Shown here in pieces: positions 4,033 through 62,760 of a stretch of 62,760 nt of DNA. The stretch comes from Coprothermobacterota bacterium. GTDB lineage: Bacteria; Caldisericota; JANLFM01. Under the pieces are notes generated by a model. The model saw only the letters and a program-made list of their open reading frames with translations. It searched no databases and was not told the origin of the DNA. Positions within the stretch are counted from its first letter, which is position 1, and the number at the start of each line of letters is the position of its first letter. The position numbers and the translations under genes are program-made. The stretch is taken from the NCBI GenBank assembly GCA_026389455.1, contig JAPLHV010000034.1, positions 1 to 62,760 on the forward strand, given 5' to 3'.

Positions 4033-4070
4033 ACACCCTACCGGGGGCTGTCTAGCCGCAGGCTGTCTCA
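4033..4070. repeat. 18-bp motif family copies (anchor ACACCCT plus CTRCCGGGGGCTGTCTAG, then CCGCAGGCTGTCT)
   Basis: acaccctaccgggggctgtctagccgcaggctgtctca. Confidence 0.75.
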
Positions 4071-4076
4071 TTGAAT

Positions 4077-4144
4077 CAGTGGTTAAGTGATTAAGTGGTT
4101 TAGTAGTTTAATAACTACTTAGCCACTTAGCCACTCAATTACTG
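4077..4144. repeat. Inverted octamer array (4 units, 4-nt loop, 4 reverse-complement units)
   Basis: cagtggtt aagtgatt aagtggtt tagtagtt taat aactactt agccactt agccactc aattactg. Confidence 0.85.
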
Positions 4145-4148
4145 CCAA

Positions 4149-4242
4149 CCTGCGGCAACATTATAGCCTGCGGCAACATTATCGTTAATGGGGACAGATT
4201 TTAAATCTGTCCCCATTAACGGCGCTGCCGCAGGCTGTCTAG
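4149..4242. repeat. Composite: 18-bp tandem (x2), 39-bp perfect palindrome (4183-4221), inverted 18-bp motif
   Basis: cctgcggcaacattatag x2; cgttaatggggacagattt-t-aaatctgtccccattaacg; ctgccgcaggctgtctag. Confidence 0.9.
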
Positions 4243-4331
4243 CATTCTTTATTTCATCTTCACATTTCCTTACCCCGCCGTTCACACGAGTCCGCTTTAC
4301 TAAGGAAAATACAGAAAGGAAGCGTAAAAAG

Positions 4332-5516
4332 ATGAAAATACAAAGAACCGTGCTGTGGATCGTCCCGCTGCTGGCAGTCCTGGTACTTGCGGGCTGTGCT
4401 GGTCCCTTCTCGGAAACAATGGGGACAGATTTGAAATCTGTCCCCATTGTTTCGCGGCAACTGGCCACCAACACCAGCACCTCCCTGGCGGAGATCTTCT
4501 CCCCCTCTACAACCAGCGAACCGCAGGGGGTCAACGAGACCACTGAGGATGCCATCACCTTGGCGGTGGGGAAAGTGAACCCTGCTGTCGTCTTCATCGA
4601 CACCACTTACCAAACCGTCCAGCAGGACGATCGCTTCAACTTCCCCGGCTACTACGCCATTCCCCAGCAGCAACAGCCCCAAGAGGGGCAGGGCTCGGGG
4701 GTGATCGTGGACGGCGGGAATGGCTACCTCCTGACCAATAACCATGTGGTAAAGAATGCTGTCGCGATCAAAGTGACCCTCCCCGACGGCCGCACCTTCA
4801 CCGGCAGCGTGGTCGGCGCCGACTCACTTGCCGACATCGCTGTGGTCAAGATCGACGGCGCCAACCTGCCCGAAGCGAAACTGGCCGACAATGCCAATTT
4901 GAAAGTAGGCTCGTGGGCGATCGCCATCGGCAACCCATACGGCTTCGAGAATTCGGTCACGGTGGGGGTCGTCTCCGCCCTAAACCGGACCATCAGCGAC
5001 CCGGACAGCGGCAATCCCCTGATGGACCTAATCCAAACCGACGCTGCCATCAACCCCGGCAACTCCGGGGGCGCCTTGGTCAACATCAACGGTGAGGTGA
5101 TCGGAATTAATACAGCCATCATCGAATCGGCCCAAGGGATCGGTTTCGCCGTGAACATCGACGCCGCCAGCCGCTCTTTCCAAGACATCGTCGCGCACGG
5201 GAAAGTAACCCGAGCATGGATGGGGATCACCTTCGCTGGAGTGACCGAGGAGATCGCCAAGCAATTGAACCTGACCCAGGCTTCCGGCGCTTTGGTCGGC
5301 AGCGTCTCGGTTGGCGGTCCTGCGGCGAAGGCTGGCCTCTTGGCCGATGACGTCATCCAGGCAGCGGACGGAACCCCCATCATCAAGGCCGAGGAGTTGA
5401 GTCAGTTGATCCTCTCCAAGCAAGCCGGCGACGCGCTCACCCTCACCGTCTGGCGCAATGGCCAGACCCTCAGCCTGACGGTGACCCTGGGAGAGATGCC
5501 CAGCCAGATTCAGTAG
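4332..5516 (+). CDS. htrA: HtrA/DegP-family serine protease with one PDZ domain, predicted lipoprotein
   Basis: Lipobox VLAGC, TNNHVV, DIAVVKI, GNSGGAL and a C-terminal PDZ. The start was moved from 4188 to the ATG that begins the signal peptide. Confidence 0.9.
   Translation: MKIQRTVLWIVPLLAVLVLAGCAGPFSETMGTDLKSVPIVSRQLATNTSTSLAEIFSPSTTSEPQGVNETTEDAITLAVGKVNPAVVFIDTTYQTVQQDDRFNFPGYYAIPQQQQPQEGQGSGVIVDGGNGYLLTNNHVVKNAVAIKVTLPDGRTFTGSVVGADSLADIAVVKIDGANLPEAKLADNANLKVGSWAIAIGNPYGFENSVTVGVVSALNRTISDPDSGNPLMDLIQTDAAINPGNSGGALVNINGEVIGINTAIIESAQGIGFAVNIDAASRSFQDIVAHGKVTRAWMGITFAGVTEEIAKQLNLTQASGALVGSVSVGGPAAKAGLLADDVIQAADGTPIIKAEELSQLILSKQAGDALTLTVWRNGQTLSLTVTLGEMPSQIQ
4413..4453. repeat. 41-bp perfect palindrome inside htrA (encodes ETMGTDLKSVPIVS)
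   Basis: gaaacaatggggacagattt-g-aaatctgtccccattgtttc. Confidence 0.9.
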
Positions 5517-5567
5517 GAAAAGACGCCCTGCCGGGGGCTATCATCCTCTCCTTCTACCCTCCTATTT

Positions 5568-5608
5568 CAACCATGGGCTGCCTACGGCAGCCCATGGTTG
5601 TTTCGTTT
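5568..5608 (+). terminator. Rho-independent terminator after htrA
   Basis: 15-bp perfect stem caaccatgggctgcc/ggcagcccatggttg followed by tttcgttt. Confidence 0.75.
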
Positions 5609-5659
5609 GAATCCTTTCGTTTCGTTTTCCAGAGGAGCCAGCCTATTTTGTCAGTTTCC

Positions 5660-5684
5660 GTAGGGGCAGGTTTCAAACCTGCCC
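5660..5684 (+). repeat. GTAG-type REP
   Basis: gtaggggcaggtttcaaacctgccc; identical copy at 31658. Confidence 0.85.
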
Positions 5685-5757
5685 ATATCATCGTTTCGTT
5701 TTCCAGGGGACAACGTGTATATTGAGAGAGCAAAGCGTGAAGAAGGAGGATGCAGCC

Positions 5758-6720
5758 ATGTTGAAGCCAAGACGCTTGCGTCTAGGAGATACGGTCGGGT
5801 TGGTGTCCCCCTCCAGCGGCCCCTGGAAGCGCAGCGAGCTTTGGAGGGGGATCGCCGCGTTGGAGTCGTGGGGGTTTCAGGTGAAGGTGGGGGCGCATGC
5901 TTATGACCGCCACTACGACTATGCGGGCCTCGACGCGGACCGCGCCGCGGACCTGCTCTGGGCTTTCGATCACCCCGGGATCGACGCCGTCTTCTGCAGC
6001 CAGGGGGGGATTGGGGCGGCCCGCCTGCCCCGCCTGCTGGACTTTGACGTGATCCGGGGAAATCCGAAAATCTTCCTTGGCTACAGCGACATCACCGCGC
6101 TGCACCTGGCCATCGGCCGGGAAGCTGATTTGGTGACCTTTCATGGCCCCAGTTTGGCGGGCTTTGATCCGGAATCGATGACGGCCTACAAGAAGGACCT
6201 CCTCCTGCGCGCGCTCACCGGCGATGAGCCGTTGGGGGAGATTAAAATGGCCGATCCCGACAAGTACCTGCTGAAGATCAATGCCGGACGGGTCCAGGGG
6301 TCCCTCGTGGGGGGGAACTTGACGCTGGTTTGCGCCTCCCTGGGAACACCTTGGGAAATCCGCACGGAAGGCTGTATCCTTTTCCTGGAAGAATTAGAGA
6401 CCGAGCCCTGGCAAATGGACCATCTACTCACTCACTTGTTGAACGCGGGAAAGCTAGAGGCCGCCCGGGGCATCCTCATCGGCGAATGCCTGGACTGCGA
6501 GCCTCGCAAGCTGGATCCCGGATCTTTCAACCAACGAAGCCTGGAGGACATCCTCTTCGAGTTGCTGGAGCCGCTGGGGCGCCCGGTCCTCTATGGGCTC
6601 CCTCTGGGCCACACCAAAGACCGCGCGACCTTGCCTTTAGGGGTCGCCGCTACCTTAGACACGGCGGAAGGGTTCTTCCGCATCGATGAAGTCGCGACGA
6701 TAAACGGAAAGGAGAAATGA
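5758..6720 (+). CDS. S66 peptidase (LD-carboxypeptidase/MccF family)
   Basis: GDTVGLVSPSS, QGGIG, GYSDIT nucleophile elbow, GGNLT, FLEE, GHT; GGAGG SD before ATG 5758. Confidence 0.9.
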   Translation: MLKPRRLRLGDTVGLVSPSSGPWKRSELWRGIAALESWGFQVKVGAHAYDRHYDYAGLDADRAADLLWAFDHPGIDAVFCSQGGIGAARLPRLLDFDVIRGNPKIFLGYSDITALHLAIGREADLVTFHGPSLAGFDPESMTAYKKDLLLRALTGDEPLGEIKMADPDKYLLKINAGRVQGSLVGGNLTLVCASLGTPWEIRTEGCILFLEELETEPWQMDHLLTHLLNAGKLEAARGILIGECLDCEPRKLDPGSFNQRSLEDILFELLEPLGRPVLYGLPLGHTKDRATLPLGVAATLDTAEGFFRIDEVATINGKEK

Positions 6721-8918: not shown

Positions 8919-8965
8919 CCGAACGCCTGCCTAAAGGGAGGCAAGATCATCATGCTTCGCTCAGG

Positions 8966-9934
8966 ATGACCCGCCGCTACTTCTTCAGCAAGCTGTTCCA
9001 AGCCCTGCTGACGATCCTGATCATCCTCGTGATGAACTATTTCCTCTTCCGGGTGATGCCGGGGGATCCGGTCTCGATGTTGGTGCGCAACCCCCGCATG
9101 TCCCCGGAGGCGACGCAGAAGGTGGCCGAGATGTTCGGATTGGACAAGCCCTGGTACCAGCAGTTCGGGATCTATCTGATCAACCTGACCTCGGGCAACC
9201 TCGGAACCTCCTTCATCTACAAGAAACCGGTCGGGGGCATTATCATGGAACGCTTTCTGGCCACTATGCTATTGACCGTAGCGGCTGAAGCGCTGGCCAT
9301 CCTGGGCGGGGCGCTGCTGGGAATTATCGCCGCCTGGAAGAGAGGGAAACGGGTGGATGTGGCCGCCTTGGGCTTTGCCCTGGTGACATACGCCATGCCC
9401 ACCTTCTGGCTGGGAATCCTGATGGTGGCTCTCTTCGCCGTGACACTGCGCTGGTTTCCAACTTCCGGCATGCTCACCCCGACTCTTTCCATGGCCGGAT
9501 TCTGGCAAAGGCTGCCCGATACGCTCTGGCATCTCGTCTTGCCGGGAGTGACCTTGGCCCTGGTGCTACTGGGCGAGTACGCGCTGATCATGCGCAACGC
9601 GCTAATCGACGTGCTGACCGAAGACTACATCACTACCGCTCGAGCCAAGGGAGCGTCAGAAGGACGGGTCCTCCGCCGGCACGCCCTGCCCAATGCAATG
9701 ATCCCGATGGTCACGCTGATCGCCCTGAACCTGGGATTCACCATCACCGGCGCCCTCCAGGTGGAGACAGTCTTTTCCTGGCCCGGCCTGGGCCGGCTGA
9801 TGTATGACGCCCTGGCGGGACGCGACTACCCCTTGCTGCAGGGGATCTTCCTGATAACGGCCATCGCCGTGGTGGGCGCCAACTTCCTCTCCGACCTGAC
9901 CTACCGTTTTCTCGACCCGCGGGTGAAAGAGTAA
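8966..9934 (+). CDS. Opp/Dpp ABC permease (OppB-like)
   Basis: MPGDP, EDYITTARAKG EAA loop, RDYPLLQG. Confidence 0.92.
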   Translation: MTRRYFFSKLFQALLTILIILVMNYFLFRVMPGDPVSMLVRNPRMSPEATQKVAEMFGLDKPWYQQFGIYLINLTSGNLGTSFIYKKPVGGIIMERFLATMLLTVAAEALAILGGALLGIIAAWKRGKRVDVAALGFALVTYAMPTFWLGILMVALFAVTLRWFPTSGMLTPTLSMAGFWQRLPDTLWHLVLPGVTLALVLLGEYALIMRNALIDVLTEDYITTARAKGASEGRVLRRHALPNAMIPMVTLIALNLGFTITGALQVETVFSWPGLGRLMYDALAGRDYPLLQGIFLITAIAVVGANFLSDLTYRFLDPRVKE

Positions 9935-9937
9935 GGA

Positions 9938-10888
9938 ATGGTACACCTTCACTTCCCTTCCATTCGATCAAAGCAGCGCGGGGACAGATTGAAATCTGTC
10001 CCCGGAATCTGTCTCCCGGGTGCGAGGGCAAGGCAACGGAAAGGGTGGCGAGAAAACTGGTCCCTCTTCCGAGCCAACCGGATGGGGATGGCCGGGTTGA
10101 TTCTCTTCCTCTTCTTCGTCTTGGTGGCGATCTTCGGACCCATCCTCTGGCCCTACGATCCATTGGAGTTCGGCTCCCCGGCCGATGTCCTGCAACCGCC
10201 CAGCGCAGCGCACTGGCTGGGGACCGACGACATGGGCCGGGACGTCCTGCTGGGATTGATCGCCGGGAGCCGCGTCTCGTTGATGGTGGGGATCCTGGCC
10301 ACCGTCGTCTCAATGTCGGTGGGCGCCTTTGTCGGTTTGACGGCAGGCTACCTGGGAAAGGGAACGGATGCCGTCCTGATGCGCTTCACCGATGTCTTCC
10401 TGGTGCTTCCCTGGCTTCCCTTGATGCTGATCCTGGCCGCTCTGCTGGGGGCCAGTCTGTGGAACATCATCCTGGTGATCGGCCTGACCGGATGGGCCGG
10501 CACGGCCCGCCTGGTTCGCGCCCAGGCCTTGGCGGTGAAGGAGCGGCCTTTCGTGGAGCGGGCTCGCGCCCTGGGCTCCTCCCGCTGGGGAATCATGGGT
10601 CGCCACGTGCTGCCCAACGTTTTCCCGCTGATCTTCGCCAACACCATCCTTATTGTAGCTGTCTCGATCCTCTCCGAGACCACCCTCAGTTTCCTGGGAA
10701 TGGGCGACAGCACCCGCCCCAGTTGGGGGATGATGCTGCACTTTGCCTTCGCCTCGGGCGCCATCTCCAACGGCGCTTATTGGTTCCTGGTCCCTCCCGG
10801 GCTGTGCGTCCTGCTGGTGGTGTTGGCTTTCACTTTCATGGGGTACGCGCTGGATGAGATTCTCAACCCCAAGCTGAGGAAGCGCTGA
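9938..10888 (+). CDS. Opp/Dpp ABC permease (OppC-like)
   Basis: HWLGTDDMGRD, FVERARALG, PSWG. Confidence 0.9.
   Translation: MVHLHFPSIRSKQRGDRLKSVPGICLPGARARQRKGWRENWSLFRANRMGMAGLILFLFFVLVAIFGPILWPYDPLEFGSPADVLQPPSAAHWLGTDDMGRDVLLGLIAGSRVSLMVGILATVVSMSVGAFVGLTAGYLGKGTDAVLMRFTDVFLVLPWLPLMLILAALLGASLWNIILVIGLTGWAGTARLVRAQALAVKERPFVERARALGSSRWGIMGRHVLPNVFPLIFANTILIVAVSILSETTLSFLGMGDSTRPSWGMMLHFAFASGAISNGAYWFLVPPGLCVLLVVLAFTFMGYALDEILNPKLRKR
9979..10017. repeat. GGGGACAGATT palindrome plus an extra half-site in the oppC 5' region
   Basis: cggggacagatt-ga-aatctgtccccg followed by gaatctgtctccc. Confidence 0.8.
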
Positions 10889-10889
10889 G

Positions 10890-11837
10890 ATGCCACTCCT
10901 GGATGTGCAGGATCTGCACGTCTCTTTCTCCATGCGCCAAGGAATGGTGAGGGCTGTGGATGGGGTCAGCTTCACTCTGGAGGAAGGGGAATCGTTGGGC
11001 TTGGTCGGCGAATCCGGTTGCGGCAAGACCACCGCCGCGCTTTCGCTTCTGCGCCTTCTGCCGCCCAATGGACGAATCGACTCCGGCAAAATCCTCTATC
11101 AGGGACGAGACGTGCTGACTTTCACCGCGGAAGAGTTGCGTCGTTTCCGCTGGAAGGAAATCTCGATCATCTTTCAAGGGGCGATGAACGCCCTCAATCC
11201 GGTGCAGCGGGTAGGGGACCAGATCGCTGAAGCCATTCGCCTGCACCAGCCGGTAAGCGAGAAAGATGCCGGCAAACAGGCCCAAGCGCTGTTGGAAAGG
11301 GTGGAACTGGAAGGGCGGAGGGTAAACGACTATCCCCATGAGTTCAGCGGCGGGCAGCGCCAACGGGTGATGATCGCCATGGCCCTGGCCTGCCGCCCCC
11401 GCATCGTTATCGGGGACGAGCCTACCACTGCCCTCGACGTGATGGTCCAGGCGCAGATCTTCGAGCTGGTGGAGAGCTTGCGCAAAGAGTTGGGAATGGC
11501 CATGATCCTAATCACCCATGACCTCTCCGTGCTGGGCGACACCTGTGATCGGGCAGCGGTGATGTACGCTGGCCAGATTGTGGAGATCGGGCCCATCGAG
11601 ACCCTCTTCCAAACCCCCTGCCACCCCTACGCGCGTTGTCTGCTGCGATCTTTCCCGCGCCTGCAAGGATCTCGTTCGATGGCCGACTCGATTCCGGGCA
11701 CGCCGCCCAACTTGATTGAGGTTCCTCCCGGCTGCCGTTTTCACCCCCGCTGCCCAGAGGTCATGGCCATCTGCTCCCGGGAACAACCGCTTCTCCTGGA
11801 GCGCGGACCGCGCCACAGTGTAGCTTGCCATGGATAG
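10890..11837 (+). CDS. Opp/Dpp ABC ATPase (OppD-like)
   Basis: [22 protein letters not shown]-terminal GCRFHPRC. Confidence 0.93.
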
Positions 11838-11880
11838 AACACCCTGCCGGGGGCTAGATAGAACACCCTGCCGGGGGCTA
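11833..11880. repeat. 24-bp perfect tandem duplication of the 18-bp motif family
   Basis: gatagaacaccctgccgggggcta x2; contains the oppD stop codon. Confidence 0.9.
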
Positions 11881-11898
11881 TCTACCGGAGGGGAATCA

Positions 11899-23658: not shown

Positions 23659-26600
23659 GTGGGCTTCGTTCACCTGCACGTTCACTCCGAGTTCAGTCTT
23701 CTAGACGGGCTCTCGCGCATCGACGACTTGGTCGAGCGAGCCAAGGCCTTGGGCATGCCTGCTGTCGCTCTCACCGACCACGGCTCGATGCATGGAGTGA
23801 TTCCCTTCTACAGGAAGGCCAAAGAGTCCGGGATCAAACCGATTATCGGCTGTGAGGTCTATGTAGCGCCCCGGACCCGCTTCGACAAGGAAGGGAAACA
23901 GGATCAGCCCTACCACCTGCTGCTCCTGGCCAAGGATCTCACCGGCTATCGCAATCTCCTGAAGTTGGTCAGCCTGGCTCATCTAGAGGGCTTCTACTAC
24001 AAGCCGCGCGTCGATCACGACGCGCTTAAAGCTCACGCGGAGGGTCTGATCGCCCTTTCCGCCTGCCTGAAAGGGGAGATCCCCAGGAACTTGCTGCAGG
24101 GAAACGCCGAACGCGCCGAGGAGATCGCCCGCTTCTATCTGGAGATCTTCGGTCGTGGAAATTTCTACTTCGAAGTGATGAACCATAAGCTGCCCGACGA
24201 GAAGGTCTACTTCGACCAGATGGCCGACCTGGCTCGCCGCTTGGGGATCCCTCTGGTGGCCACCAACGACTCGCATTACATGGCCGAGACCGACTACCGC
24301 ACCCACGAGATCCTTCTCTGCGTGGGTACCGGCAAAGCGCTAGAGGACGCCAACCGCCTCTCTTTCGTGAACAATGAGTTCTACTTCAAGACCGAAGAGG
24401 AGATGCGGCAGGCCGTCCCACTGCCGGAGGCTTTGGCCATCACCGAGGAGATCGCCGATCGGTGCAACCTAGAGCTGCAGTTCGGGCGCTTTCACTTGCC
24501 CAACTTCCCTACTCCTCCCGGTGAGACGCTCGACTCCTTCCTCACCGGTCAAGTAGAGGAGGGGCTTCGCCGCCGTTTTCCAGAGGTCTCTCCGGCCCAG
24601 CGAGAGCGCGTCGATTTTGAGTTGAACACCATCCGGCAGATGGGCTTCGCTGGTTACTTCCTGATCGTCTGGGATCTGATCCGCCACGCCAAGAAGTCGG
24701 GGATCTCGGTCGGCCCGGGTCGCGGGTCAGTGTGCGGCTCACTGGTAGCTTATGCCTTGGACATTACCGAGATCGACCCCCTCCGATACGACCTTTACTT
24801 CGAGCGCTTCCTCAATCCGGAGCGGATCTCGATGCCGGATGTGGACACCGATTTTGCCTCGGAGCGACGGGAAGAGGTGATCGAATACATCAAGGGGAAA
24901 TACGGCGCGGACTGCGTCGCTCAGATCGTCACCTTTGGGACGATGGCCGCCCGGGCAGCCATTCGCGACACCGGCCGGGTATTGAAGGCGCCTCTTTGGC
25001 AGGTCGACAAGATCGCCAAAATGATCCCCTTCGGTTCTTCCCTAGCCGAGGCCCTCACCACCGTCCCCGAGCTGCGAGAGGCGGTCGACGCCGACCCCAA
25101 GGTATCCGACCTGCTGCAGTCGGCCCGCGGCTTGGAGGGGATCTCTCGCCACGCCTCGACCCATGCCGCTGGGGTAGTGATCTCAGCCGAGCCGTTGAAC
25201 AACTACGTGCCCCTCATGCTGGGCGCCGATGGGATCGTCACTACCCAATTCGCCATGACCGAGATCGAGAAGATCGGTCTTCTGAAACTCGATATCCTCG
25301 GCCTCTCCACCCTCAGTATGATGGATGGCGCTTTAGCTTTGATCGAAAGGCGCTGGGGGAGGCGCATCGACTGGGCCGAGACGCCTCTCGACGATGCCGT
25401 CACCTTCGCGATGCTGCAAGGGGCGGAAACCTCCGGGGTGTTCCAGTTGGAGTCTCGTGGGATGCGTTCGATCCTGAAGAACCTGAAGCCGACTTGCGTG
25501 GAGGATATCATCGCCATCGTCGCCCTCTATCGCCCCGGCCCGATGGCCATGATCGACGACTTCATCCGTCGCAAGCAGGCACAGGTGCCGATCGACTATC
25601 TGCACCCGTCTTTGGAGCCGGTCCTCAAGCAAACCTACGGCACCATCGTCTATCAGGAGCAGGTCATGCAAATCTGCGCCGTCATGGCCGGATACACCCT
25701 GGCTGAAGCCGACTTGGTGCGAAAAGCGATGGGCAAGAAGGACCAGGCCATGATGGATCAGCAGCGACCGGCCTTCATCGCCCGGTCCATCGAGCGGGGG
25801 GTGGACAAGGATCTAGCAGGGAAGGTTTTCGACTTCATGGCCGAATTTGCCAAATATGGGTTTAACAAAGCCCACGCCACCGCCTATGGGGTTTTGGCTT
25901 ACCGCACCGCCTACCTGAAAGCACACTACCCGCAGGAATTCATGGCCGCTTTGCTCACCTCAGTTCGGGCCGACGACGAGAAAGTGCGCCAGTATGTGGA
26001 GGAATGCCGCCACTTCGGCCTCAAAGTGCTGCCTCCCAACCTCAACCAGGGTGAGCTGGGATTCACGCCCGCGACAGCGAGTCAGCCCGCGACAGCGAGT
26101 CAGCCCCCGGCAGGGTGTTCCGCCCAGCAGGAGGAGATCTACTTCGGCCTGGCGGCGATCAAGAACGTGGGTGGGGGAGCAGTAAACCTGATCGTCGAGG
26201 AACGCCGAAAGAACGGGCTGTTCCGCTCCTTCTCAGATTTTCAGGAACGCGTTGTCTCCCATCTGGTGACCAAGAAGACAGTAGAGAGCTTGATTAAAGC
26301 AGGCGCTTTCGACTTCGGCGGTCGTGGCCGATCCGAGCTGCTGGGCAACCTGGAGCGCAGTGCCGGCTCTTCCCGGCGTTCCAGCCGGAAGGAACAAACC
26401 GGCCTTTTCGGGGAGTCTTCACCCGGTGAACGCACACCGGGGGGGGAAGACAGCTACGCCCAGGGTAGTCCTGCAATCAGTCGAAGCGAAGGGAAGACTT
26501 CCGAGGGGGAAATCCTAGCCATGGAGAAGGAAGTGTTGGGCTTCTACATCTCCAACCACCCGCTGGCCCGCTACCAGGAACAACTGGCTAAGCTGAACCT

Positions 26601-27174: not shown

Positions 27175-27260
27175 GGGACAGATTTCCGGACCGTTAATGG
27201 CGCTGTTATTGGGGACAGATTTTAAATCTGTCCCCAATAACAATGCTGCCGCAGACTATC
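27175..27260. repeat. Composite: half-site, 39-bp perfect palindrome (27204-27242), 18-bp motif
   Basis: ggggacagatttc...; tgttattggggacagattt-t-aaatctgtccccaataaca; gctgccgcagactatc. Confidence 0.88.
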
Positions 27261-27267
27261 AATTAAG

Positions 27268-33975: not shown

Positions 33976-35017
33976 CCTGCTGGATAGCCTGCGCGATCGC
34001 AAGGTGCGAGCTTTGGCGCAGGCCATCTCTCTCTCCGAAAACGATCCGATTGGGGCGGCCGAGCTGTTCAGCCAGCTTGGCCCGGTGGCGCCGCGCTATA
34101 AAATCGGCCTCACCGGCCCTCCCGGCTCGGGAAAGAGCACCCTCATCCGCGCTCTTCTCGACCAGGCGGTGGCGAAAGGTTTGCGTACAGGGGTGATCGC
34201 CGTCGACCCCTCCAGCCCCTTCTCCGGGGGAGCTCTCCTGGGGGATCGTCTGCGCATGCAACTTCCCAATTTCGACCCTCAGCAGGTCTTTATCCGCAGC
34301 CTCTCTTCGCGCGGACACCTGGGCGGCCTCTCCCCCGGGATTCTCACCAGCCTCAGTCTGCTGGAGCACTACGGCTTCGACCTGATCCTGCTGGAGACGG
34401 TCGGGGTGGGACAGGCCGAAATCGAAGTGATGTATCTGGTCGATCTCGTGCTGGTAGTTCTGGTTCCGGGGATGGGGGACGAGATTCAGGCCATGAAATC
34501 CGGTTTGATGGAGATCGCTGACCTCTTCCTGATCAACAAGTGCCGACGCCCCGGCGCCGAGGCCCTGATGAGCGAGCTGTTGACTATGCTTGCCTCTGCC
34601 CCTCGTTTCCAGGAAGAAGGCGTCTGGCGGCCGGAGATCTTCCGTACAGAAGCAATAGATGGGGAGGGCGTCAGCGCACTTTTCGAGCGGTTGTTCTCCT
34701 ACCGGGAGGATCCCGTCCTCCAGACCTACCTTCAAAATAAACAGCGCCGCCGGCTCTACTACCAGGTCTTCCAGTCTGTGCTGAACACCTTCCGCGTCTG
34801 GACGGCCGACGCCCTGAAACCCATCACCCTAAACCCGGACCAGGCTTTTAACGCGCATGAGCTGGCACAACGAGTGATCGGGGAGGTCTGCCGCCAGGAA
34901 AGAGCGCGCCATGACGCCCAGCCCTTGGAAGGAAACATAGCGGACACTCTAGCCTGCGGCAGCGCGTCCCACCCAGATATTACAAAAAGAGACTCGCTGC
35001 CGCGGGCTGAGACGTAG
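33968..35017 (+). CDS. meaB: MeaB/ArgK GTPase chaperone of the mutase
   Basis: GPPGSGKST, AVDPSSPFSGGALLGDRLRM, ETVGVGQ, NKCR. Confidence 0.92.
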   Translation: MPSLLDSLRDRKVRALAQAISLSENDPIGAAELFSQLGPVAPRYKIGLTGPPGSGKSTLIRALLDQAVAKGLRTGVIAVDPSSPFSGGALLGDRLRMQLPNFDPQQVFIRSLSSRGHLGGLSPGILTSLSLLEHYGFDLILLETVGVGQAEIEVMYLVDLVLVVLVPGMGDEIQAMKSGLMEIADLFLINKCRRPGAEALMSELLTMLASAPRFQEEGVWRPEIFRTEAIDGEGVSALFERLFSYREDPVLQTYLQNKQRRRLYYQVFQSVLNTFRVWTADALKPITLNPDQAFNAHELAQRVIGEVCRQERARHDAQPLEGNIADTLACGSASHPDITKRDSLPRAET

Positions 35018-35030: not shown

Positions 35031-35465
35031 ATGATGTTGAAAAAGATCGATCACATTGGGATTGCCGTACTATCCATCGAGGAGACCGGCGCCATGCTGG
35101 AGAAGCTGGGTTTGATCAAGGAAGGGGAGGAGGAGATCGCCTCGCAGAAGCTGCGCGTGGCCTTCTTCAATGTTGGCGGTGTGCGCATCGAGCTATTGGA
35201 GCCGACCTCTCCAGAGTCCACGGTATCCAGGTTCTTGGAAGCCAAAGGGCAAAGCGTTCACCATATCGCCTACGAGACAGAGGATGTGGACGCGGAACAG
35301 CAGCGTTTGCTGGGGGAGGGGTTCGTCTTCATCAACGAGACTCCTCAGCCCGGCGCGCACGGCGCCCGCACCGCCTTCCTGCACCCCAAGGCGACCGGGA
35401 AGATCCTGACTGAATTGGTAGAACACCCTGCCGGGGGCTGTCTAGATGGTTCTTTCTCAAACTGA
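35031..35465 (+). CDS. mce: Methylmalonyl-CoA epimerase
   Basis: IDHIGIAV, IELLEP, HHIAY, FLHPK, ELVE. Confidence 0.93.
   Translation: MMLKKIDHIGIAVLSIEETGAMLEKLGLIKEGEEEIASQKLRVAFFNVGGVRIELLEPTSPESTVSRFLEAKGQSVHHIAYETEDVDAEQQRLLGEGFVFINETPQPGAHGARTAFLHPKATGKILTELVEHPAGGCLDGSFSN
35418..35445. repeat. 18-bp motif family copy in the epimerase 3' end
   Basis: gtagaacaccctgccgggggctgtctag. Confidence 0.85.
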
Positions 35466-41395: not shown

Positions 41396-42108
41396 TGGCC
41401 CTCGCCCTGGAAGTGAAAGACCTCCATGTGGCCTACGGCGGGATCAAAGCCTTGCGTGGGATCTCCGTCAAAGTGGAAGCATGTTCCATCGTGACCATGA
41501 TCGGGGCCAATGGAGCCGGTAAATCCACCACCCTTCGAGCCATCTCCGGAATCGTTGCCAAGCAGAGCGGACATGTGACCTTCTTCGACAAGGACATCAC
41601 CAGCACGCCTGCTCATATCATTGTGGCCATGGGGATCTCCCACGTGCCGGAAGGCCGGCGCATGTTCGCGACGCTGAGCGTCATGGAAAACCTGGAGATC
41701 GCCACCTACACGCGCCATGATAAAAAAGAGTTCGCCGAGTCCCTGGAAACCGTTTTCAGCCTTTTCCCCCGCCTGAAAGAACGCAGGAAACAACTGGCGG
41801 GAACGCTCTCCGGCGGCGAGCAGCAGATGTTGGCTGTAGGCCGGGCCATGATGACTCACGGGAAAGTGATGCTCCTCGACGAGCCGTCGATGGGCCTTGC
41901 CCCCGTACTGGTGGAAGAGATCTTCCGCACCATCAAGAAGATCAACGAATTGGGCACCACCATCCTTCTCGTGGAGCAGAACGCTCGTATGGCCTTGGAA
42001 TATTCTAATTACGCCTATGTATTGGAAGTAGGCGTGGTCTCCGCGGAAGGCCCCTCCAGCCAGTTACTGGACGACCCCCGGGTGAAGGAAGCCTACCTGG
42101 GCGGCTAG
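41395..42108 (+). CDS. livF: Branched-chain amino acid ABC ATPase
   Basis: GANGAGKS, LSGGEQQML, DEPSMGL. Confidence 0.94.
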   Translation: MALALEVKDLHVAYGGIKALRGISVKVEACSIVTMIGANGAGKSTTLRAISGIVAKQSGHVTFFDKDITSTPAHIIVAMGISHVPEGRRMFATLSVMENLEIATYTRHDKKEFAESLETVFSLFPRLKERRKQLAGTLSGGEQQMLAVGRAMMTHGKVMLLDEPSMGLAPVLVEEIFRTIKKINELGTTILLVEQNARMALEYSNYAYVLEVGVVSAEGPSSQLLDDPRVKEAYLGG

Positions 42109-42154
42109 ACAACCTGCAGCAGTATGTTCTATGAAATCTTTACCTCCCATGACA

Positions 42155-45204: not shown

Positions 45205-45205
45205 G

Positions 45206-45368: not shown

Positions 45369-45464
45369 GTAGGGGCGGGTTTCAAACCCGCCCCCTGCAT
45401 AGCTTGCGGCAGCACAGCTAGACAGCCTGCGGCAGCACGAGCTAGACAGCCTGCGGCAGCACGA
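45369..45464. repeat. Composite: GTAG REP (45369-45394) plus 24-bp tandem of the 18-bp motif family (45417-45464)
   Basis: gtaggggcgggtttcaaacccgcccc; gctagacagcctgcggcagcacga x2. Confidence 0.88.
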
Positions 45465-45497
45465 AGTTAAGATCACACCATAGAGAGGGTATCCGGA

Positions 45498-47063: not shown

Positions 47064-47255
47064 ATGGAGAGCAACGAGAGAATTCCCCAGGAAATTCAGG
47101 TGGTCATTGCTGCCGCCCTAGCCCGCTACCTGAAGGATGACAAGCTGGCCTTCAAAGTAGTTTCCATCAAGCTGGTGCAAACCTCCCAGATCAACCTTTG
47201 GGGATTGACGGGGCGCCAGGAGAACATGCTCGGGACACGCGGCCGCAGGTTATGA
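47064..47255 (+). CDS. Small soluble subunit resembling the C-terminal part of MmdD/OadG
   Basis: VIAAALARY...F.VVSIK...WGLTGRQENM; no TM helix. Confidence 0.7.
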   Translation: MESNERIPQEIQVVIAAALARYLKDDKLAFKVVSIKLVQTSQINLWGLTGRQENMLGTRGRRL

Positions 47256-47419
47256 TGTTGCCGCAGGTTAGCCAAAATAGCCCCCGGCAGCTTGATAGCC
47301 CCCGGCAGCTTGATAGCCCCCGGCAGCTTGATAGCCCCCGGCAGCTTGATAGCCCCCGGCAGCTTGATAGCCCCCGGCAGCTTGATAGCCCCCGGCAGGG
47401 TGTTCTGTCTAGCCGCAGG
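47242..47419. repeat. 18-bp tandem array (6 perfect units plus a partial) with anchor and flanking motif copies
   Basis: cttgatagcccccggcag at 47291-47398 preceded by a 14-nt partial unit; ends ggtgttctgtctagccgcagg; gccgcaggttatgatgtt duplication upstream. Confidence 0.95.
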
Positions 47420-47446: not shown

Positions 47447-47887
47447 ATGACCCGTAAGTACGTGATCAAGGTGAACAACAAGCCCTATGAAGTGGAGGTG
47501 ACGGAGGTGGGCCGCACGCCCAACGCCCCCCTCCCCCCTGCCCCGCTGCCCCCAGTCGTCGTCGCCTCCGCACTGCCTGCGCAAAGGGTGAGCATGCCGA
47601 TGCCGGGAGGCCCTCCGCCGCCCCCCACCAGCAAAACCCCAAGCGGATTGACAGCCCCCGGCAGGGCGTTCAGTGAAAAGGTCGTACAGGCGCCGATGAC
47701 CGGCACGATCATCAAAATCCTCTGCCGGGTCGGTCAGGAGGTCAACGAGGGGGACGTGATCCTCAAACTGGAAGCGATGAAGATGGAGACCGAAATGGCC
47801 GCCCCCTTCCCCGGCCGGGTGAAGGAGATACGCGTGGCCGAGCGCCAGAACGTCACCGCCGGCGACGCCCTGGTGGTCATGGAGTGA
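47447..47887 (+). CDS. Biotin carboxyl carrier protein
   Basis: YEVEV N-terminus, Pro-rich linker, EAMKM. Confidence 0.94.
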   Translation: MTRKYVIKVNNKPYEVEVTEVGRTPNAPLPPAPLPPVVVASALPAQRVSMPMPGGPPPPPTSKTPSGLTAPGRAFSEKVVQAPMTGTIIKILCRVGQEVNEGDVILKLEAMKMETEMAAPFPGRVKEIRVAERQNVTAGDALVVME

Positions 47888-53148: not shown

Positions 53149-53250
53149 GAAGGGGCGTCGCATGCGTCGCCCCTACCAGCTCCCGGCAGCTCGATAGCCC
53201 CCGGCAGCTCGATAGCTCCCGGCAGCTCGATAGCTCCCGGCAGGGGAGTT
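53149..53250. repeat. Composite: GTAG REP on the minus strand (53149-53176) plus variant 18-bp array (53178-53243)
   Basis: gaaggggcgtcgcatgcgtcgcccctac; ctcgatagcycccggcag x3 plus a partial, ending gggagttc. Confidence 0.88.
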
Positions 53251-53400
53251 CTGTGTCGCGATCGGTAAAGTCGGAGAAGGGTTCATGACCGGTTAGACGG
53301 GGGGAGGCAGTGTGAATGCCTGAGCCTCTGAAACTCCTCCCCTCCCGCCTGAGCCACAGCAGCGACTGTTGCGACGTTCTGATAGAATACCTTCGGAAAA

Positions 53401-54476: not shown

Positions 54477-54483
54477 ACCTACA

Positions 54484-55172: not shown

Positions 55173-55508
55173 TCACTTCCGAGGCGGAGGCGTTTGGGTG
55201 GGAGAGGGCGCCTTGCCGGGGGCTAACTTGTTGATTTTGAAGAGGGTACGGAAAAAAGCCATCGTTCCAGCTTGGAATGCCGAAACTTCGGCCAAAGGCT
55301 CCACCACCGTCTGGGCTGTCCGGCGTGTGGTCTCCTCCACTTTCCGAGCCTGTTCCGACAGGTTCCCCAAGGCTTGGCCGGCCGCCCTCTGCGCTTTCCG
55401 GGTGAAAACGAAGAGGGCATAGAGCGCCACCGCCAAGCCGAGCAGGAAGAAAAGGGCCAACACTGCCAAAATGATCAGGGCGATGTCGCGCCAGAGGTGC
55501 AGATCCAC
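55173..55508 (-). CDS. Hypothetical membrane-anchored coiled-coil protein (DUF948/YtxG-like)
   Basis: RDIALII N-terminal TM followed by a helical region; coupled to neighbours. Confidence 0.6.
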   Translation of the reverse strand: MDLHLWRDIALIILAVLALFFLLGLAVALYALFVFTRKAQRAAGQALGNLSEQARKVEETTRRTAQTVVEPLAEVSAFQAGTMAFFRTLFKINKLAPGKAPSPTQTPPPRK

Positions 55509-59120: not shown

Positions 59121-59777
59121 CTATTCTGTGTGGGGAGTCACCAGACCGTTCTGGATGGCGTAACGCACCAGGCTCACCACCTCATGAAAGCCCAACCGCT
59201 TCATCAGCAGCATGCGATGGGTATCAGCCGTACTGACGGCGATGTTCAGGATTTCGGCGATCTCCCGCGTGCTGTAGCCTTCGGCGATCAACTGCAGCAC
59301 TTGGCGCTGGGCGGGTGTCAGGGGTGGGGCGCCATGGTCGGCTCGCATCCGTGCCAAGTTCTCTTCCACTGCCGCTCGCGAGATGGACGGGGCTAGGTAC
59401 ATTCTACCCGCGCTGACCTCACGCAGCGCTTGCTCCAGCTCTCCGCCGGCGGCATCCTTCAACAAGTAGCCATCCGCCCCGGCTTGCAGGGCGCGGCAGA
59501 CGTACTCCTCGTTGGCATGCATGGAGAGGATCAGCACGCGCACCTTGCGCCATTTTCGCTTGATCCGCTGCGTCGCTTCCAGGCCGTTCAGTCGAGGCAT
59601 GGAGAGATCCATCAGGACCACGCGGGGGTGAAAGCGCCTGACGCATTCGACGGCCTCCTCCCCATTGGCTGCTTCGGCCAGCACCACCACGTCTGGGACT
59701 TTCTCCAGGAGGGAGCGCAGGCCGGCCCGGAAGAGGGTGTGGTCATCGGCCAAGATGACCCCGATTGGTCCCTTCAT
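59121..59777 (-). CDS. NarL/LuxR-family response regulator
   Basis: LADDH, MDLSMP, LSMH, GYLLK, LTPAQRQVL..IAEG HTH; ATG 59777 overlaps the kinase stop. Confidence 0.93.
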   Translation of the reverse strand: MKGPIGVILADDHTLFRAGLRSLLEKVPDVVVLAEAANGEEAVECVRRFHPRVVLMDLSMPRLNGLEATQRIKRKWRKVRVLILSMHANEEYVCRALQAGADGYLLKDAAGGELEQALREVSAGRMYLAPSISRAAVEENLARMRADHGAPPLTPAQRQVLQLIAEGYSTREIAEILNIAVSTADTHRMLLMKRLGFHEVVSLVRYAIQNGLVTPHTE

Positions 59778-61909
59778 TCCCTCCTCTTCCTGTGGTTCCC
59801 TTTGCCCAGGGGGAAGACCGCCCGCACCTCGGCGCCCTGACCCGGGCTGGTATGGATGGTCAGCTTTCCTTGCACCAGCAACACCCGCTCCTGCATCCCC
59901 ACCAAGCCAAGGCTCTCCCCCTTCATACCGGCTTCCATGGCATGCTCCAGGTCGAAGCCGCATCCGTCGTCACGCACGCACAAGAGGAGGGAATCGCCTC
60001 GCTGACTTACCGTGACCACTACTTCCTGGGCGCCGGCATGGCGAATGACGTTGGTCAATGCTTCCTGAACGACACGGAAACAAACAGTCTCCAATTCACT
60101 GGAGAGGTGCAGCTCGGCCGGCTCGGCGGAGAGGCCAGTCCGCAGTCCGGTACGGCGAGCCAAGCGATCCAAACTGCCGCGCAGGCACTCAACCAAGCCC
60201 AGGTCGTCGAGGGCAGTGGGACGCAACTCCAGAGAGAGGCTGCGCACCTTCTCAATGGCTTGGTCGATGGTGTCGACGCTCTCTTTCAAGAGGACACGCT
60301 CTTCCTCCTGCAGTTCTTGCACTGGGAGGTTCTGCAGGGTCAGCTTCACCGCCGAGAGAGCCTGCCCGATCTGGTCATGCAGCTCGCGGGCGATGACCCG
60401 CCGCTCCCCTTCCTGGGCTTCCAGCAGACGTCGGGGAATTGATCGCATCTGTTCTTCGGCCCTTTTGCGGTCGCTGATGTCGCGCGCAATGCCTAGAAAA
60501 GCGCGTGAGGCGCCGAGAGCGTTGCGAATCAAGGAGAGTTTCAGCTCACCGGGCAGGGTGGAGCAGTTCACCCGAGCCAGTGTGACTTCAAATGTAACAG
60601 ACCGGCCACTAGCCAACACACGCAGGGATTCTTGGTGGATGCGGACATTCTCTTCTGGAATGACCAACTCCCCAACCGGCAACCCCATCATAGCGTGGGT
60701 TGTCGCATACCCGTGCAGCGCGGCGGCCTGCTGATTAGCCAGCAGGATCTCACCGTTCAACCCCACCAGAACGATTGCATCCGGCGACGACTCCAGAATG
60801 GTGCGGGCTTGTTCTTCGCTCTCGCGCAAGGCTTGCTCGGATCGGGTCCGGGAAGTGACGTCTTCGATCATAGTGATCGCCTGGGAGACCTGGCCCCCCT
60901 CTATAATGGGAATCTTCTTCACCCGAAAGATCCCCTCCCGCTCTCCTCGCCGCAAATGAGTCAGGCTCTCCAGCGCTTGGCCGCTTCTGAACACCCACTC
61001 GTATTCCTGGCGCTGCACCTCCCCACCGAATGGGAAGACATCCGGCGCCTCCTGCCCCAGGATCTCCACATCCGTGAAGGCAGGTTCCTGTTCCCCACGC
61101 CACTCCCGCTGCATGCGCCGGAAGGCGCTGTTGGCAAGCAGGATGCGCAGATCGGGGCCGACCACGTGGAGGGGATCGTCGATCCCCTCGATGGTGGCAT
61201 GATACTGAACTTCCGACCGTACCAACGATTCGTGGCTGCGCCGGCGCATGATGGCGCCGGCCACCATTCCGCCGATGATGCGCAGCAAGGTGGCCGTCTC
61301 GGGGCTCCACTCCTTCTCCCGGCTGTATTGGTTGAGCCCGATCCAACCGAAGAGAGAACCCCCGAAGAGGATCGGGACAGCCAATGCCGAGTGAATCCCC
61401 AAGTAGTCCAGGAGGCGCTGTTCTACCTCCGCTTCCGGTGGCAGTTCGGCAACATTGGGAATCTCGATCGCCTCGCGCCGTCGCAGCTTCGCCGCCACCC
61501 AAGGGATCTCATCCACCTCGATGCAGGGAAGCAGCTCGTTGCTGCGACCGGGGAGACCGGAGAAGTATTGGGAGGACTGGAGGAAGTAGCGCGAGTCTGC
61601 GGACAACAACCGAATGAATGCGCTCTCCGCCTGGCAGAACTCACGCAATTGGGTCAGAGCGTCCTGCACCCCTTGACCCACCTCCTCTGGAGGCAAGTTC
61701 AGGAAATGGCTGGAGATCTGGGCGATCAGGCGATCTCCGCTGGCGCGGTGGCGAAGCTGCGATTCACTCACCTCGCACAACTTGATAGCCCCCGGCAGCT
61801 TGATAGCCCCCGGCAGCTTGATAGCCCCCGGCAGCTTGATAGCCCCCGGCAGCTTGATAGCCCCCGGCAGGGTGTTACGATCAATGCGGCCCTCCCTCCC
61901 CTCGGGCAT
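59774..61909 (-). CDS. GAF-PAS-PAS sensor histidine kinase (HisKA_3); exact start uncertain
   Basis: ERRVIARELHDQIGQ, QEALTNVIRHA, DDGCGF, LGLVGMQER. Confidence 0.92.
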   Translation of the reverse strand: MPEGREGRIDRNTLPGAIKLPGAIKLPGAIKLPGAIKLPGAIKLCEVSESQLRHRASGDRLIAQISSHFLNLPPEEVGQGVQDALTQLREFCQAESAFIRLLSADSRYFLQSSQYFSGLPGRSNELLPCIEVDEIPWVAAKLRRREAIEIPNVAELPPEAEVEQRLLDYLGIHSALAVPILFGGSLFGWIGLNQYSREKEWSPETATLLRIIGGMVAGAIMRRRSHESLVRSEVQYHATIEGIDDPLHVVGPDLRILLANSAFRRMQREWRGEQEPAFTDVEILGQEAPDVFPFGGEVQRQEYEWVFRSGQALESLTHLRRGEREGIFRVKKIPIIEGGQVSQAITMIEDVTSRTRSEQALRESEEQARTILESSPDAIVLVGLNGEILLANQQAAALHGYATTHAMMGLPVGELVIPEENVRIHQESLRVLASGRSVTFEVTLARVNCSTLPGELKLSLIRNALGASRAFLGIARDISDRKRAEEQMRSIPRRLLEAQEGERRVIARELHDQIGQALSAVKLTLQNLPVQELQEEERVLLKESVDTIDQAIEKVRSLSLELRPTALDDLGLVECLRGSLDRLARRTGLRTGLSAEPAELHLSSELETVCFRVVQEALTNVIRHAGAQEVVVTVSQRGDSLLLCVRDDGCGFDLEHAMEAGMKGESLGLVGMQERVLLVQGKLTIHTSPGQGAEVRAVFPLGKGNHRKRRE
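61781..61870. repeat. 18-bp perfect tandem array x5 with anchor
   Basis: cttgatagcccccggcag x5 followed by ggtgtt. Confidence 0.95.
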
Positions 61910-61965
61910 CCATCCAACGGGTAGGCGGCGTAGAGAGCAAGGAAGGAAGGCGAACGCCCTTCAGC

Positions 61966-62712
61966 TCACTTGCCCTTGGCCTGATCGGCCACTGCCTGAG
62001 CCGCTCTGGCGATCTCTTCCGGGTTTCCCAAATAACGGTGGCCGATGGGGTGCAAGTCTTCGCTCAAGTCGTAGACCAGGGGGATCCCGGTGGGAATATT
62101 CAGTTCCACAATCTCCTCGTCCGGGATCTGATCCAGATACTTCACCAGAGCGCGCAGGCTGTTGCCGTGGGCTACAATCAGCAAGCGCCGGCCGGCTCGG
62201 ATGGCGGGCACGATGGCCTGGCGCCAATACGGTAAAAAGCGAGCGACGGTGTCCTTCAGACACTCAGCGAGGGGGACTTGTTCCGGAGCCAGATCGCGGT
62301 AACGTGGATCATGCCCGGGCCAACGAGGGTCGGCCGGCTCCAGGGAAGGAGGTTGGATATCGTAGCTGCGCCGCCATAATTTCACCTGCGCTTCCCCGTA
62401 GCGGGCTGCCGTCTCTGCCTTGTTCAGCCCCTGCAGGGCGCCGTAGTGGCGCTCGTTCAGTTCCCATGCGCGCACCACAGGGATCCACATCAGGTCCATC
62501 TCGTCCAGCACCAGCCAAAGGGTGCGGATAGCCCGCTTCAATACCGAGGTGTAGGCCAAGTCGAAGGTGAAACCGGCCTCGCGCAAGACTCGCCCGCTGC
62601 GCGTGGCTTCCTCAATGCCCAGTGGGGAGAGATCCACATCGGTCCATCCGGTGAAGCGGTTCTCCTTATTCCACACGCTCTCCCCGTGCCGTAACAGTAC
62701 GATCTGGTACAT
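61966..62712 (-). CDS. gpmA: 2,3-bisphosphoglycerate-dependent phosphoglycerate mutase
   Basis: [27 protein letters not shown]. Confidence 0.97.
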
Positions 62713-62734
62713 GTCATTCCTCCAATCGAGAGAA

Positions 62735-62760
62735 GATAGCCCGCGGCAGCTTGATAGCCC
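62735..62760. repeat. 18-bp array, truncated by the window end
   Basis: gatagcccgcggcagcttgatagccc. Confidence 0.8.

Follow-up and report, generated by a model that had tools for sequence, protein, structure and literature searches.

M18, a genus-specific and recently expanding family of 21-nt repeat units and 18-nt arrays in an uncultured bacterial lineage

Small dispersed repeats (SDR1-8) of the Nostocaceae are, according to secondary descriptions, dispersed units of approximately 20 nt that occur in tandem in varying number and are thought to be mobile, with no known mobilising enzyme reported in those descriptions (PMC2884548, PMC5861425); the account in PMC5861425 reports them from the Nostocaceae only. 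In the superfamilies of repetitive extragenic palindromic (REP) sequences, one end of the palindrome carries the tetranucleotide GTAG or CGTC (PMC3733652). The present work concerns a repeat family, here named M18, that was examined on a 62,760-nt stretch of DNA (the window), being a contig (JAPLHV010000034.1, hereafter C88) of the metagenome-assembled genome (MAG) of Coprothermobacterota bacterium GCA_026389455.1 (2.63 Mb, 263 contigs, 57.6% GC, 89% completeness). M18 was found to be a family of 21-nt units with arrays of 18-nt period, confined to one genus and in recent expansion; its unit has been copied to new sites in this lineage without target-site duplication.

Among the kinds of repeat considered, the cyanobacterial SDRs, compared by way of secondary descriptions, are the closest. 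M18 agrees with the description of SDRs in PMC2884548 with respect to dispersed units of about 20 nt, variable tandem number and presence or absence between relatives, and short tandem oligomers also occur in both kinds of host genome, described as heptamers for SDR hosts and found as octamers in the M18 host. The sequence of M18 is nevertheless probably unrelated to that of the SDRs, and its host is an uncultured, non-cyanobacterial lineage; HIP1 is not enriched in the genome (108 observed, 135 expected), indicating that the host is not a cyanobacterium. M18 further shows a defined 21-nt solo unit, array steps of 18 nt and documented in-frame copies in essential genes.

Similarity was also identified to REP sequences and bacterial interspersed mosaic elements (BIMEs), which like M18 are short, GC-rich, hairpin-forming and mostly extragenic, are present in hundreds of copies and form mosaic clusters or arrays (PMC3116915, PMC3733652). 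Both are occasionally located within replication or repair genes, and genes resembling those of REP-associated tyrosine transposases (RAYTs) are present in the M18 host. However, the ends of M18 lack the GTAG/CGTC tag that other families in the same genome do bear (GTAG), its stem consists of 3 bp with one to two outer pairs rather than a stable palindrome of 20-40 bp, and no M18 copies flank a RAYT gene as they would in a REP/RAYT unit (REPtron), while a third of M18 loci touch genes. Membership of the REP/RAYT class fails on these three counts of tag, stem length and gene flanks. Unlike REPINs, which are inverted doublets at a fixed distance, M18 mainly forms head-to-tail 18-nt arrays; head-to-head pairs, separated by 11 or 16 nt, number roughly 26 among its 769 loci and are heterotypic parts of larger mosaics.

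Miniature inverted-repeat transposable elements (MITEs) carry 15-30-bp terminal inverted repeats and duplicate their target site, whereas M18 inserts 21 nt without target duplication at clean empty sites. CRISPR loci have unique spacers of similar length between their repeats together with cas genes, unlike the 769 loci of M18, at which the 6-nt spacer RTCNAG is a conserved sequence rather than a unique one. Mycobacterial interspersed repetitive units (MIRUs) are 40-100 bp in length, occupy about 40 loci per genome, do not form hairpins and are not known to occur as 21-nt solo insertions inside genes; they share with M18 the placement of tandem units within operons (intercistronic) and a copy number that varies between strains. 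Rickettsia palindromic elements (RPEs) are described as CGTC-tagged, approximately 100-150 bp in length and without tandem arrays, and share with M18 the in-frame presence of palindromic repeats in genes whose function is probably retained, as far as the account in PMC3733652 goes.

Abundance, structure and turnover of M18

The original prediction, made from the window alone, was of an 18-bp motif present in roughly 40 copies at about 20 sites, and this was borne out. The pattern CTGCCG(G/C)(G/A)GGCT(R)TC(N)AG (up to two mismatches) was matched 28 times in the window against 0.10 expected, a number reached by none of 100 dinucleotide-preserving shuffles, and scanning with a relaxed 12-nt core and direct reading gave approximately 45 credible copies at about 19 sites. 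The suggested genome-wide scan found 837 occurrences of the core CTGCCGGGGGCT, with about one expected, and 1,408 copies of the slightly relaxed 12-nt core at 769 loci in 2.63 Mb, or roughly one locus per 3.4 kb.

The genome carrying the window (G000) was compared with three sister species (G001, G002 and G003), with sister genera (G004-G008) and with a phylum set of 93 genomes from 24 genera. M18 occurs in each of the four species of a single genus (4 of 93 genomes, 1 of 24 genera) and in none of the remaining 89 genomes of the set, which represent 23 other genera. Its bearers include independently assembled MAGs from other studies, the relatives being lake-sediment or lake-water MAGs (ELA551, a Lac Pavin 'Coprothermobacterota' MAG and a binchicken co-assembly), and two Joint Genome Institute (JGI) metagenome contigs also bear it. 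Tandem pairs number 250 in G000 and 8-36 in the sister species. The phages, plasmids and viral contigs searched gave no M18 match, a literature search on the core 12-mer gave no relevant match, and comparison with described REP and MITE families, which the prediction had named as a possible refutation, revealed no match of M18 to described REP tags.

The basic unit is approximately 21 nt in length, AGRAC(A/T/G)-YS-C-TGCC-G-SR-GGCT-R, with the consensus (AC)AGRACACC-CTGCCGGGGGCT-RTCNAG when the array spacer is included. In first units, 375 copies have C-G at positions -1/+6, 207 have G-C and 13 have a non-Watson-Crick combination, while positions -2/+7 are C-G in 437, T-A in 139 and otherwise in 19, so that the two stem pairs are Watson-Crick in three subfamilies (CC/GG, CG/CG and TG/CA). 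As these stem positions covary, the predicted anchor (AGRACACC) can be identified as the 5' arm of a small hairpin, YS-C-[TGCC]-G-SR. The unit is accordingly regarded as an imperfect hairpin with a covarying 3-bp inner stem around a TGCC loop, which is probable rather than proven because the covariation consists of two independent compensatory changes. An outer stem (positions -9 to -3 with 11 to 17) was rejected, its pairing being no better than marginal frequencies predict. Inner 18-nt units are without the 5' arm. Arrays of four units fold at -21 to -22 kcal/mol on the G-rich strand (z -2.7 to -3.2) and less well on the complementary strand (z 0.0 to -1.9); this folding occurs via hairpins between neighbouring units (CCGG.GGCT-loop-AGCT.CCGG), which place the variable R and N positions in the loop and the conserved AG in the stem.

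The arrays of the window listed in the prediction were mostly recovered with Tandem Repeats Finder, an 18-nt pair at 47240/47258 being seen in the core scan only. Their predicted polarity was confirmed, as all begin, in motif orientation, with AGRAC(A/T/G)C(C/G) and have inner junctions of RTCNAG, of which CCCCCGGCAG-GGTGTT (anchor) and CCCCCGGCAG-CTTGATAG (inner junction) are the opposite-strand forms; genome-wide, 131 of 131 arrays of at least four units start at the anchor. Core-to-core spacings (n=639) are most often 18 nt (495), followed by 21 nt (49) and 36 nt (27). The divisibility of the period by three applies in the window and is broken genome-wide by 50 of these spacings (8%), at 19, 22, 23, 25, 26 and 29 nt and similar. 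Homogenisation of each array with a variant of its own was found to be only partial, as the arrays at 47277 and 61781 have an identical unit and just 50 of the 131 are perfectly homogeneous. Heterogeneous arrays show blocks or higher-order periods, some with a first unit unlike all inner ones. Directional growth, as proposed, found no support in a gradient of variant units, non-modal units being at the 5' end in 34 of 131 arrays and at the 3' end in 43; the block patterns fit slippage or unequal exchange, not polar addition from one template.

Copy-number differences between relatives are whole-unit steps of 18, 36, 54, 90 or 108 nt (mostly 18 nt, ten times, and 36 nt, eight times, between G000 and G003), and this change of length in 18-nt steps indicates that the arrays turn over quickly. 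Orthologous arrays can moreover differ in every unit (e.g. CAGG/ATCAAG in place of GGGGG/GTCAAG), which points to rapid turnover with homogenisation. M18 arrays therefore have the head-to-tail units and whole-unit variation between relatives by which minisatellites, or variable-number tandem repeats (VNTRs), are recognised. With the window contig stopping within an array at 62760, array copy numbers are lower bounds.

The mobility that had been proposed for the family is supported by clean empty sites in the sister species. In the alignment of G003 to G000 (744 kb, 120 of about 180 G003 contigs, median identity 90.6%), 47 of 148 clean gaps of at least 6 nt involve M18, though it constitutes approximately 1% of the DNA, and the insert is on the G000 side in 35 of these 47 (p=0.001). 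Fully empty-allele events (n=14) have sizes of 21 nt (five), 22 nt (two), 18 nt (two), 15 nt (two), 24 nt, 36 nt and 156 nt. At least eight blunt 21-nt inserts have clean empty sites, together with one of 39 nt (21+18). The recurrent new insert, AGRACNCC-CTGCCGGGGGCT-R, is blunt and without target duplication or evident target consensus, and its ends shift by a few bases between events. At least three insertions in the window (5520, 26067 and 62732) can be polarised as gains with two relatives.

Several junctions fall in target sequence already resembling the anchor or the 3' part of the unit, the empty site of 5520 in G001 reads as the anchor-like AAGACACCCT, and there are anchor-like sites with a net gain of exactly 18 nt. 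At 35418, the element runs on directly from GTAGAACAC (35418-35426), which codes for the ancestral C-terminus ...LTELVEH seen in the orthologues of G003, G008, G004 and G007, replacing the last codons of the gene and providing a new stop codon. As these orthologues show, the anchor was in the target before insertion in this case, a match of this length having a chance of approximately 1e-3 across the events examined. The proposal that copies are seeded by an anchor is consequently upheld for a minority of events, with 35418-35426 as the clearest, while in most the anchor arrives with the core in the 21-nt insert. As a general rule, the anchor as sole target was ruled out by the normal frequency of free anchor 8-mers, which indicates that anchors alone do not attract insertions.

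With respect to genes (called genome-wide with our own crude codon-usage gene caller, 81% coding), 65% of M18 loci are intergenic compared with 18% of random positions, and 35% touch called genes. Tandem, divergent and convergent spacers hold 62, 22 and 16% of loci and 63, 22 and 15% of base pairs; no preference for promoter or terminator regions was found, spacer use tracking length. Orientation is opposite to local transcription in 59-61% of loci, a weak bias (p ~1e-4), and GC skew was uninformative on replication-strand bias in this fragmented genome. Approximately 117 loci lie deep within 92 called genes, with all six frame and orientation classes being used. Core-to-core spacings that are not multiples of three make up 47 of 381 between genes and 3 of 233 in genes (Fisher p=1.6e-7), in keeping with the suggestion that a length divisible by three permits persistence in genes. 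Their near absence within genes shows that frame-breaking copies are removed from genes by selection, and the same comparison indicates that the 18- and 21-nt lengths are intrinsic to the element, with selection stripping other lengths from genes.

Copies in the window, neighbouring repeats and candidate enzymes

The copies identified in the window are given in the table. A match at 24421 was rejected as an M18 copy, being a chance similarity in conserved dnaE coding sequence. The gene start at 27268 (ATGCCGCAGATC...; region 27246-27290) resembles a second M18 unit at a spacing of 23 nt after the copy at 27246, and the start codon of this gene may stem from the repeat. Searches of the window with Rfam (gathering thresholds) gave no match, and ARAGORN gave no tRNA or tmRNA gene.

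Table. M18 copies of the window, with array calls from Tandem Repeats Finder (TRF), gene domains from Pfam and the state of the site in sister species
Positions	Strand	Copy	TRF call	Setting	Sister species
4030..4068	+	Two units, AGGACACC-CTACCGGGGGCT-GTCTA-GCCGCAGGCT-GTCT		Between divergent gene pair	G001, TG..CA-type solo only; G003, two GGGGG units
4147..4188	-	Two 18-nt CAGG-subtype units (TTGCCGCAGGCT + ATAATG)	4147-4182, period 18, 2.0 copies		
4217..4242	+	Solo, CAGG-type		Directly 3' of GGGGACAGATTTTAAATCTGTCCCC hairpin	Kept in G001, G002 and G003
5520..5545	+	Solo, AAGACGCC-CTGCCGGGGGCT-ATC, 21-nt insertion		Immediately past stop codon of HtrA-like protease gene	In G000 and G003; exactly 21 nt missing from G001 and G002
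11831..11885	+	Two 24-nt units including anchor (GATAGAACACCCTGCCGGGGGCTA); whole 24-nt solo duplicated	11833-11880, period 24, 100% match	Separates two oligopeptide ABC-transporter ATPase genes	48 nt (2 x 24) not in G001
26067..26121	-	Anchor and ~2.6 units of 18 nt	26067-26106	In frame in HHH_6 domain of dnaE (PHP, DNA_pol3_alpha, finger, HHH_6 and OB domains)	54 nt in G000, 33 nt of unrelated coding sequence in both G001 and G003; net gain 21 nt
27238..27263	+	Old solo, CAGG-type		Closely upstream of gene start	Common to G001, degenerate in G003
34945..34972	-	Older solo, CAGG-type		Near 3' end of MeaB GTPase gene	Common to G003
34987..35012	+	Solo, CG..CG-type (GAGACTCG-CTGCCGCGGGCT), 21-nt insertion			Missing from G003
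35418..35445	+	Solo, anchor GTAGAACAC		End of glyoxalase-fold (methylmalonyl-CoA epimerase-like) gene	
42100..42132	-	Degenerate old copy (ATAGAACATA-CTGCTGCAGGTT-GTCTAG)			Common to G003
45401..45470	-	24-nt-period array, 2.7 copies; unit includes anchor part CTCGTG	45401-45464	Followed by GTAG-type REP hairpin	
47232..47275	+	Two 18-nt CAGG-subtype units		Tail to tail with array at 47273	
47273..47408	-	Anchor ACAGAACACC and 7 cores, 18-nt period	47277-47398, 6.8 copies, 100% match	Intergenic, carboxyltransferase gene on one side and biotin-carrier gene on other	
47647..47674	-	Solo, in frame		Pro/Ala-rich linker of biotin-carrier protein, residues ~67-75; Biotin_lipoyl domain follows at 79-145	
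53178..53256	-	Anchor and 4 cores (GGGAG/GGGGG mix)	53178-53243	Divergent intergenic region, adjoins GTAG-tagged hairpin	G003 empty; G001 with different solo
55205..55230	+	Probable degenerate solo (GGGCGCC-TTGCCGGGGGCT-AAC)			
61781..61880	-	Anchor GTAACACC and 5 units of 18 nt	61781-61870, 5.0 copies, 100% match	In frame at 5' end of GAF-PAS histidine kinase gene, or upstream of gene	5 units in G000, 2 in G003, none in G001
62732..62760	-	Array cut by contig end		20 nt upstream of histidine-phosphatase gene start	Filled in G003, empty in G001

M18 also takes part in larger mosaics, in the form of head-to-head CAGG/GGGGG pairs, beside REP hairpins and at the end of a MITE-like element. The last is 95-130 nt in length with imperfect terminal inverted repeats (GGTTCTTTCTCA...), is located in the window at 16205-16334 (-) and 35447-35577 (+), the latter copy missing from G003, and has approximately 60-90 copies in the genome, an M18-like core (CTGCCGCAAGTT) forming the 3' boundary of the commonest copies of about 95 nt. 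Hairpins of another family, GGGGACAGATTT(N)AAATCTGTCCCC, number about 190 (window 4190-4222, 4372-4410 and 27208-27245), and one of them lies within the HtrA-like protease gene, in its 5' part. Directly 3' of M18 units there are often GC-rich hairpins with a GTAG tag, GTAGGGGCGGGTTT(C/G)AAACCCGCCCC (about 230 copies) and GTAGGGGCGACGCATGCGTCGCCCC, which in the window are present at 45371-45400, 5655-5690 and 53150-53177. Octamer tandem repeats (AGTGATTA, AGTGGTTT / ACTTAGCC and similar) form long inverted arrays at 4000-4135, 31755-31866 and 54382-54482; this family is distinct from M18 and often adjoins it, and at approximately 4110 its copy number differs, with 48 nt (six octamers) more in G001 and one octamer fewer in G003.

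A 415-residue gene of the window (43914-45207) has a 91% identical paralogue on contig C259 (30756-32049), a few hundred bases downstream of which an M18 array and mosaic are located. On contig C58 (15012-16053), M18-like cores recur every 267 nt in a coiled-coil repeat protein (...SLQPPAGSSEAEQT...), where an M18 copy seems to have been amplified along with the protein repeat. Contig C6 of G003 is 99% identical to window 3000-10516, with differences clustering in the repeat region around 3940-4110, while identity to G003 over the remaining window is 86-94%, which points either to a recent exchange between the two species or to contamination across the bins.

A transposase, reverse transcriptase or HUH gene flanked by the motif had been suggested as a search target, and none was identified. 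No RVT_1 match was obtained in the four genomes of the genus, and models of the retro type were down-weighted as a result. Matches to Y1_Tnp (PF01797) number ten in G000 and ten in G001, with zero to three in G002, G003 and most other relatives searched; four of the Y1 proteins match the NCBIfam REP-associated tyrosine transposase best, with one scoring above the curated cut-off. Inspection of the flanks of all ten Y1_Tnp matches in this 89% complete genome revealed none with M18. One class of Y1 gene is flanked by inverted GGGGACAGATTT hairpins, and on contig C153 (2615-3375) inverted copies of this hairpin flank a RAYT-like gene in what looks like a classical REP/RAYT unit. Another class lies among GTAG-GGGGCGGGTTT or GTAG-tagged GGGGCGGGTTTSAAACCCGCCCC REPs; a RAYT-like gene on contig C148 (41-1100) is embedded in GTAG-tagged hairpins. 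Three further Y1 genes are bounded by GGGGTCA... terminal inverted repeats of their own and in this resemble the TIRYT genes described in PMC3733652. These three genes (C25 1009-1845, C101 3306-4157 and C112 3456-4352) encode approximately 280-300 residues with a C-terminal helix-turn-helix-like tail, and their inverted repeats read GGGGTCAAGTCTTTAGATTTAGC / GGGGTCACATCTTC. A self-BLAST for repeats of at least 300 bp revealed only paralogous sensor-kinase and repeat-protein genes and no high-copy insertion sequence partner.

Possible routes of spread and their alternatives

M18 is best read as a selfish micro-repeat with similarities to REP/BIME elements and to the small dispersed repeats of cyanobacteria. 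The fuller account, that these are genus-restricted, ultra-small, non-autonomous repeats copied in by a process dependent on hairpins or annealing and then expanded by slippage, is given about an even chance of being correct. Copying in would depend on annealing or hairpin formation rather than precise transposase cuts, as is suggested by the variation of insert ends by a few bases and by the location of some junctions within pre-existing anchor-like sequence, and it could proceed by template switching or by the copying of a single-stranded intermediate. After insertion, the core with its 6-nt spacer (CTGCCGGGGGCT-RTCNAG) would be amplified by slipped-strand mispairing or unequal exchange, and the hairpins between neighbouring units on the G-rich strand (CCGG.GGCT-loop-AGCT.CCGG) may promote the slippage. 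The original prediction had offered slippage or templated addition for array growth: the 18-nt steps and blocks fit the former, while a single template is at odds with array-specific variants and no reverse transcriptase gene was found.

A number of points weigh against this account. The covariation behind the hairpin amounts to only two independent compensatory changes, and template switching within the hairpin, rather than selection, could itself yield it. The solo hairpin folds weakly as single-stranded DNA (-2 to -3.4 kcal/mol), no better than shuffles. Slippage from a 21-nt solo does not account for the conserved RTCNAG spacer, and free anchor 8-mers are not depleted. Exact junction microhomology in the clean 21-nt events is just 0-2 nt, not clearly above chance, and the recurring 21-nt boundaries look more like those of a defined excised unit than of random template switching. 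In a genome that is 89% complete, an element-specific enzyme gene may have escaped notice, and the copying mechanism is one proposed from genome comparison.

The presence of ten Y1_Tnp matches in both G000 and G001, four of the proteins having REP-associated tyrosine transposase as best match, raises the alternative that M18 is a REP-like element moved in trans by an HUH tyrosine transposase (RAYT/TIRYT) acting on a single-stranded hairpin, with arrays originating from alternative processing or later slippage. A hairpin with a conserved loop, the lack of target duplication, the weak orientation bias and the mosaics of M18 with GTAG-tagged REP hairpins, as in BIMEs, would all be in agreement with this. 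It is nonetheless considered unlikely, as other repeats occupy the flanks of the Y1 genes in place of M18, the tag that defines REP superfamilies (PMC3733652) is missing, the stem is 3-5 bp instead of a 20-40-bp palindrome, the ends of inserts shift by a few bases and contact with called genes is seen at 35% of loci; Y1 counts also do not track M18, since G001 with its ten matches has only 53 exact M18 matches. Another proposal, regarded as improbable, is that a hairpin-forming single strand (or template) is copied from 3' ends annealing to the anchor and reiterates into polar 18-nt arrays, a process undescribed in bacteria that, if true, would constitute a new class of mobile DNA with a unit of about 21 nt and neither transposase ends nor target duplication. 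A dedicated DNA-writing activity might instead extend anchor-like 3' ends from an RNA or DNA template, adding 18-nt units serially in a target-primed, telomerase-like manner. This could explain why arrays always begin at the anchor, why some junctions lie within pre-existing anchor-like sequence and why net gains of exactly 18 nt occur at such sites, yet the genus's four genomes lack an RVT_1 match, array-specific variants and blocks are not expected from a single template, most new inserts carry their own anchor and free anchors are not preferentially occupied, making this very improbable.

That the arrays are sites selected for by the host, such as RNA elements or arrays bound by a regulatory or nucleoid protein, would be consistent with the high conservation of the core across the four species, the intergenic excess and the conserved pattern of loop and stem. 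The exact match of spacer use to spacer length across promoter-type, terminator-type and intercistronic spacers, the occurrence of both orientations relative to genes, the orthologous sites that are often empty or of other copy number in sister species, the copies within dnaE and other genes in all frames and the absence of an Rfam match in the window leave little probability for such a function. Artefacts of short-read assembly or MAG binning are a scarcely credible source of the arrays: while the window contig stops within one, 16 arrays lie at most 60 nt from contig ends and the 99% identical G003 contig may reflect cross-talk between bins, MAGs and JGI contigs that different studies assembled independently have M18 at orthologous positions, collapse cannot create solo 21-nt copies or arrays shorter than a read, and in-frame copies keep long reading frames open.

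M18 ranks among the smallest DNA elements with apparent mobility to have been seen and, if it is indeed a selfish micro-repeat that is copied in and then expanded by slippage, a unit of 21 nt approaches the smallest size at which DNA still spreads through a genome. M18 represents a second system, probably unrelated to the SDRs, the only comparable elements, which have been without a known mechanism since 2008, and it is very active, with a clear burst in one species; the near-empty genomes of its sisters make this spread amenable to comparative genomics and simple plasmid assays. The arrays break short-read assemblies and cause spurious choices of start codon, which matters for annotation of the lineage. 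For the organisms themselves, M18 is the cause of roughly one in three of the larger indels that separate sister species and inserts blocks of 6-7 residues into proteins, the replicative polymerase included.

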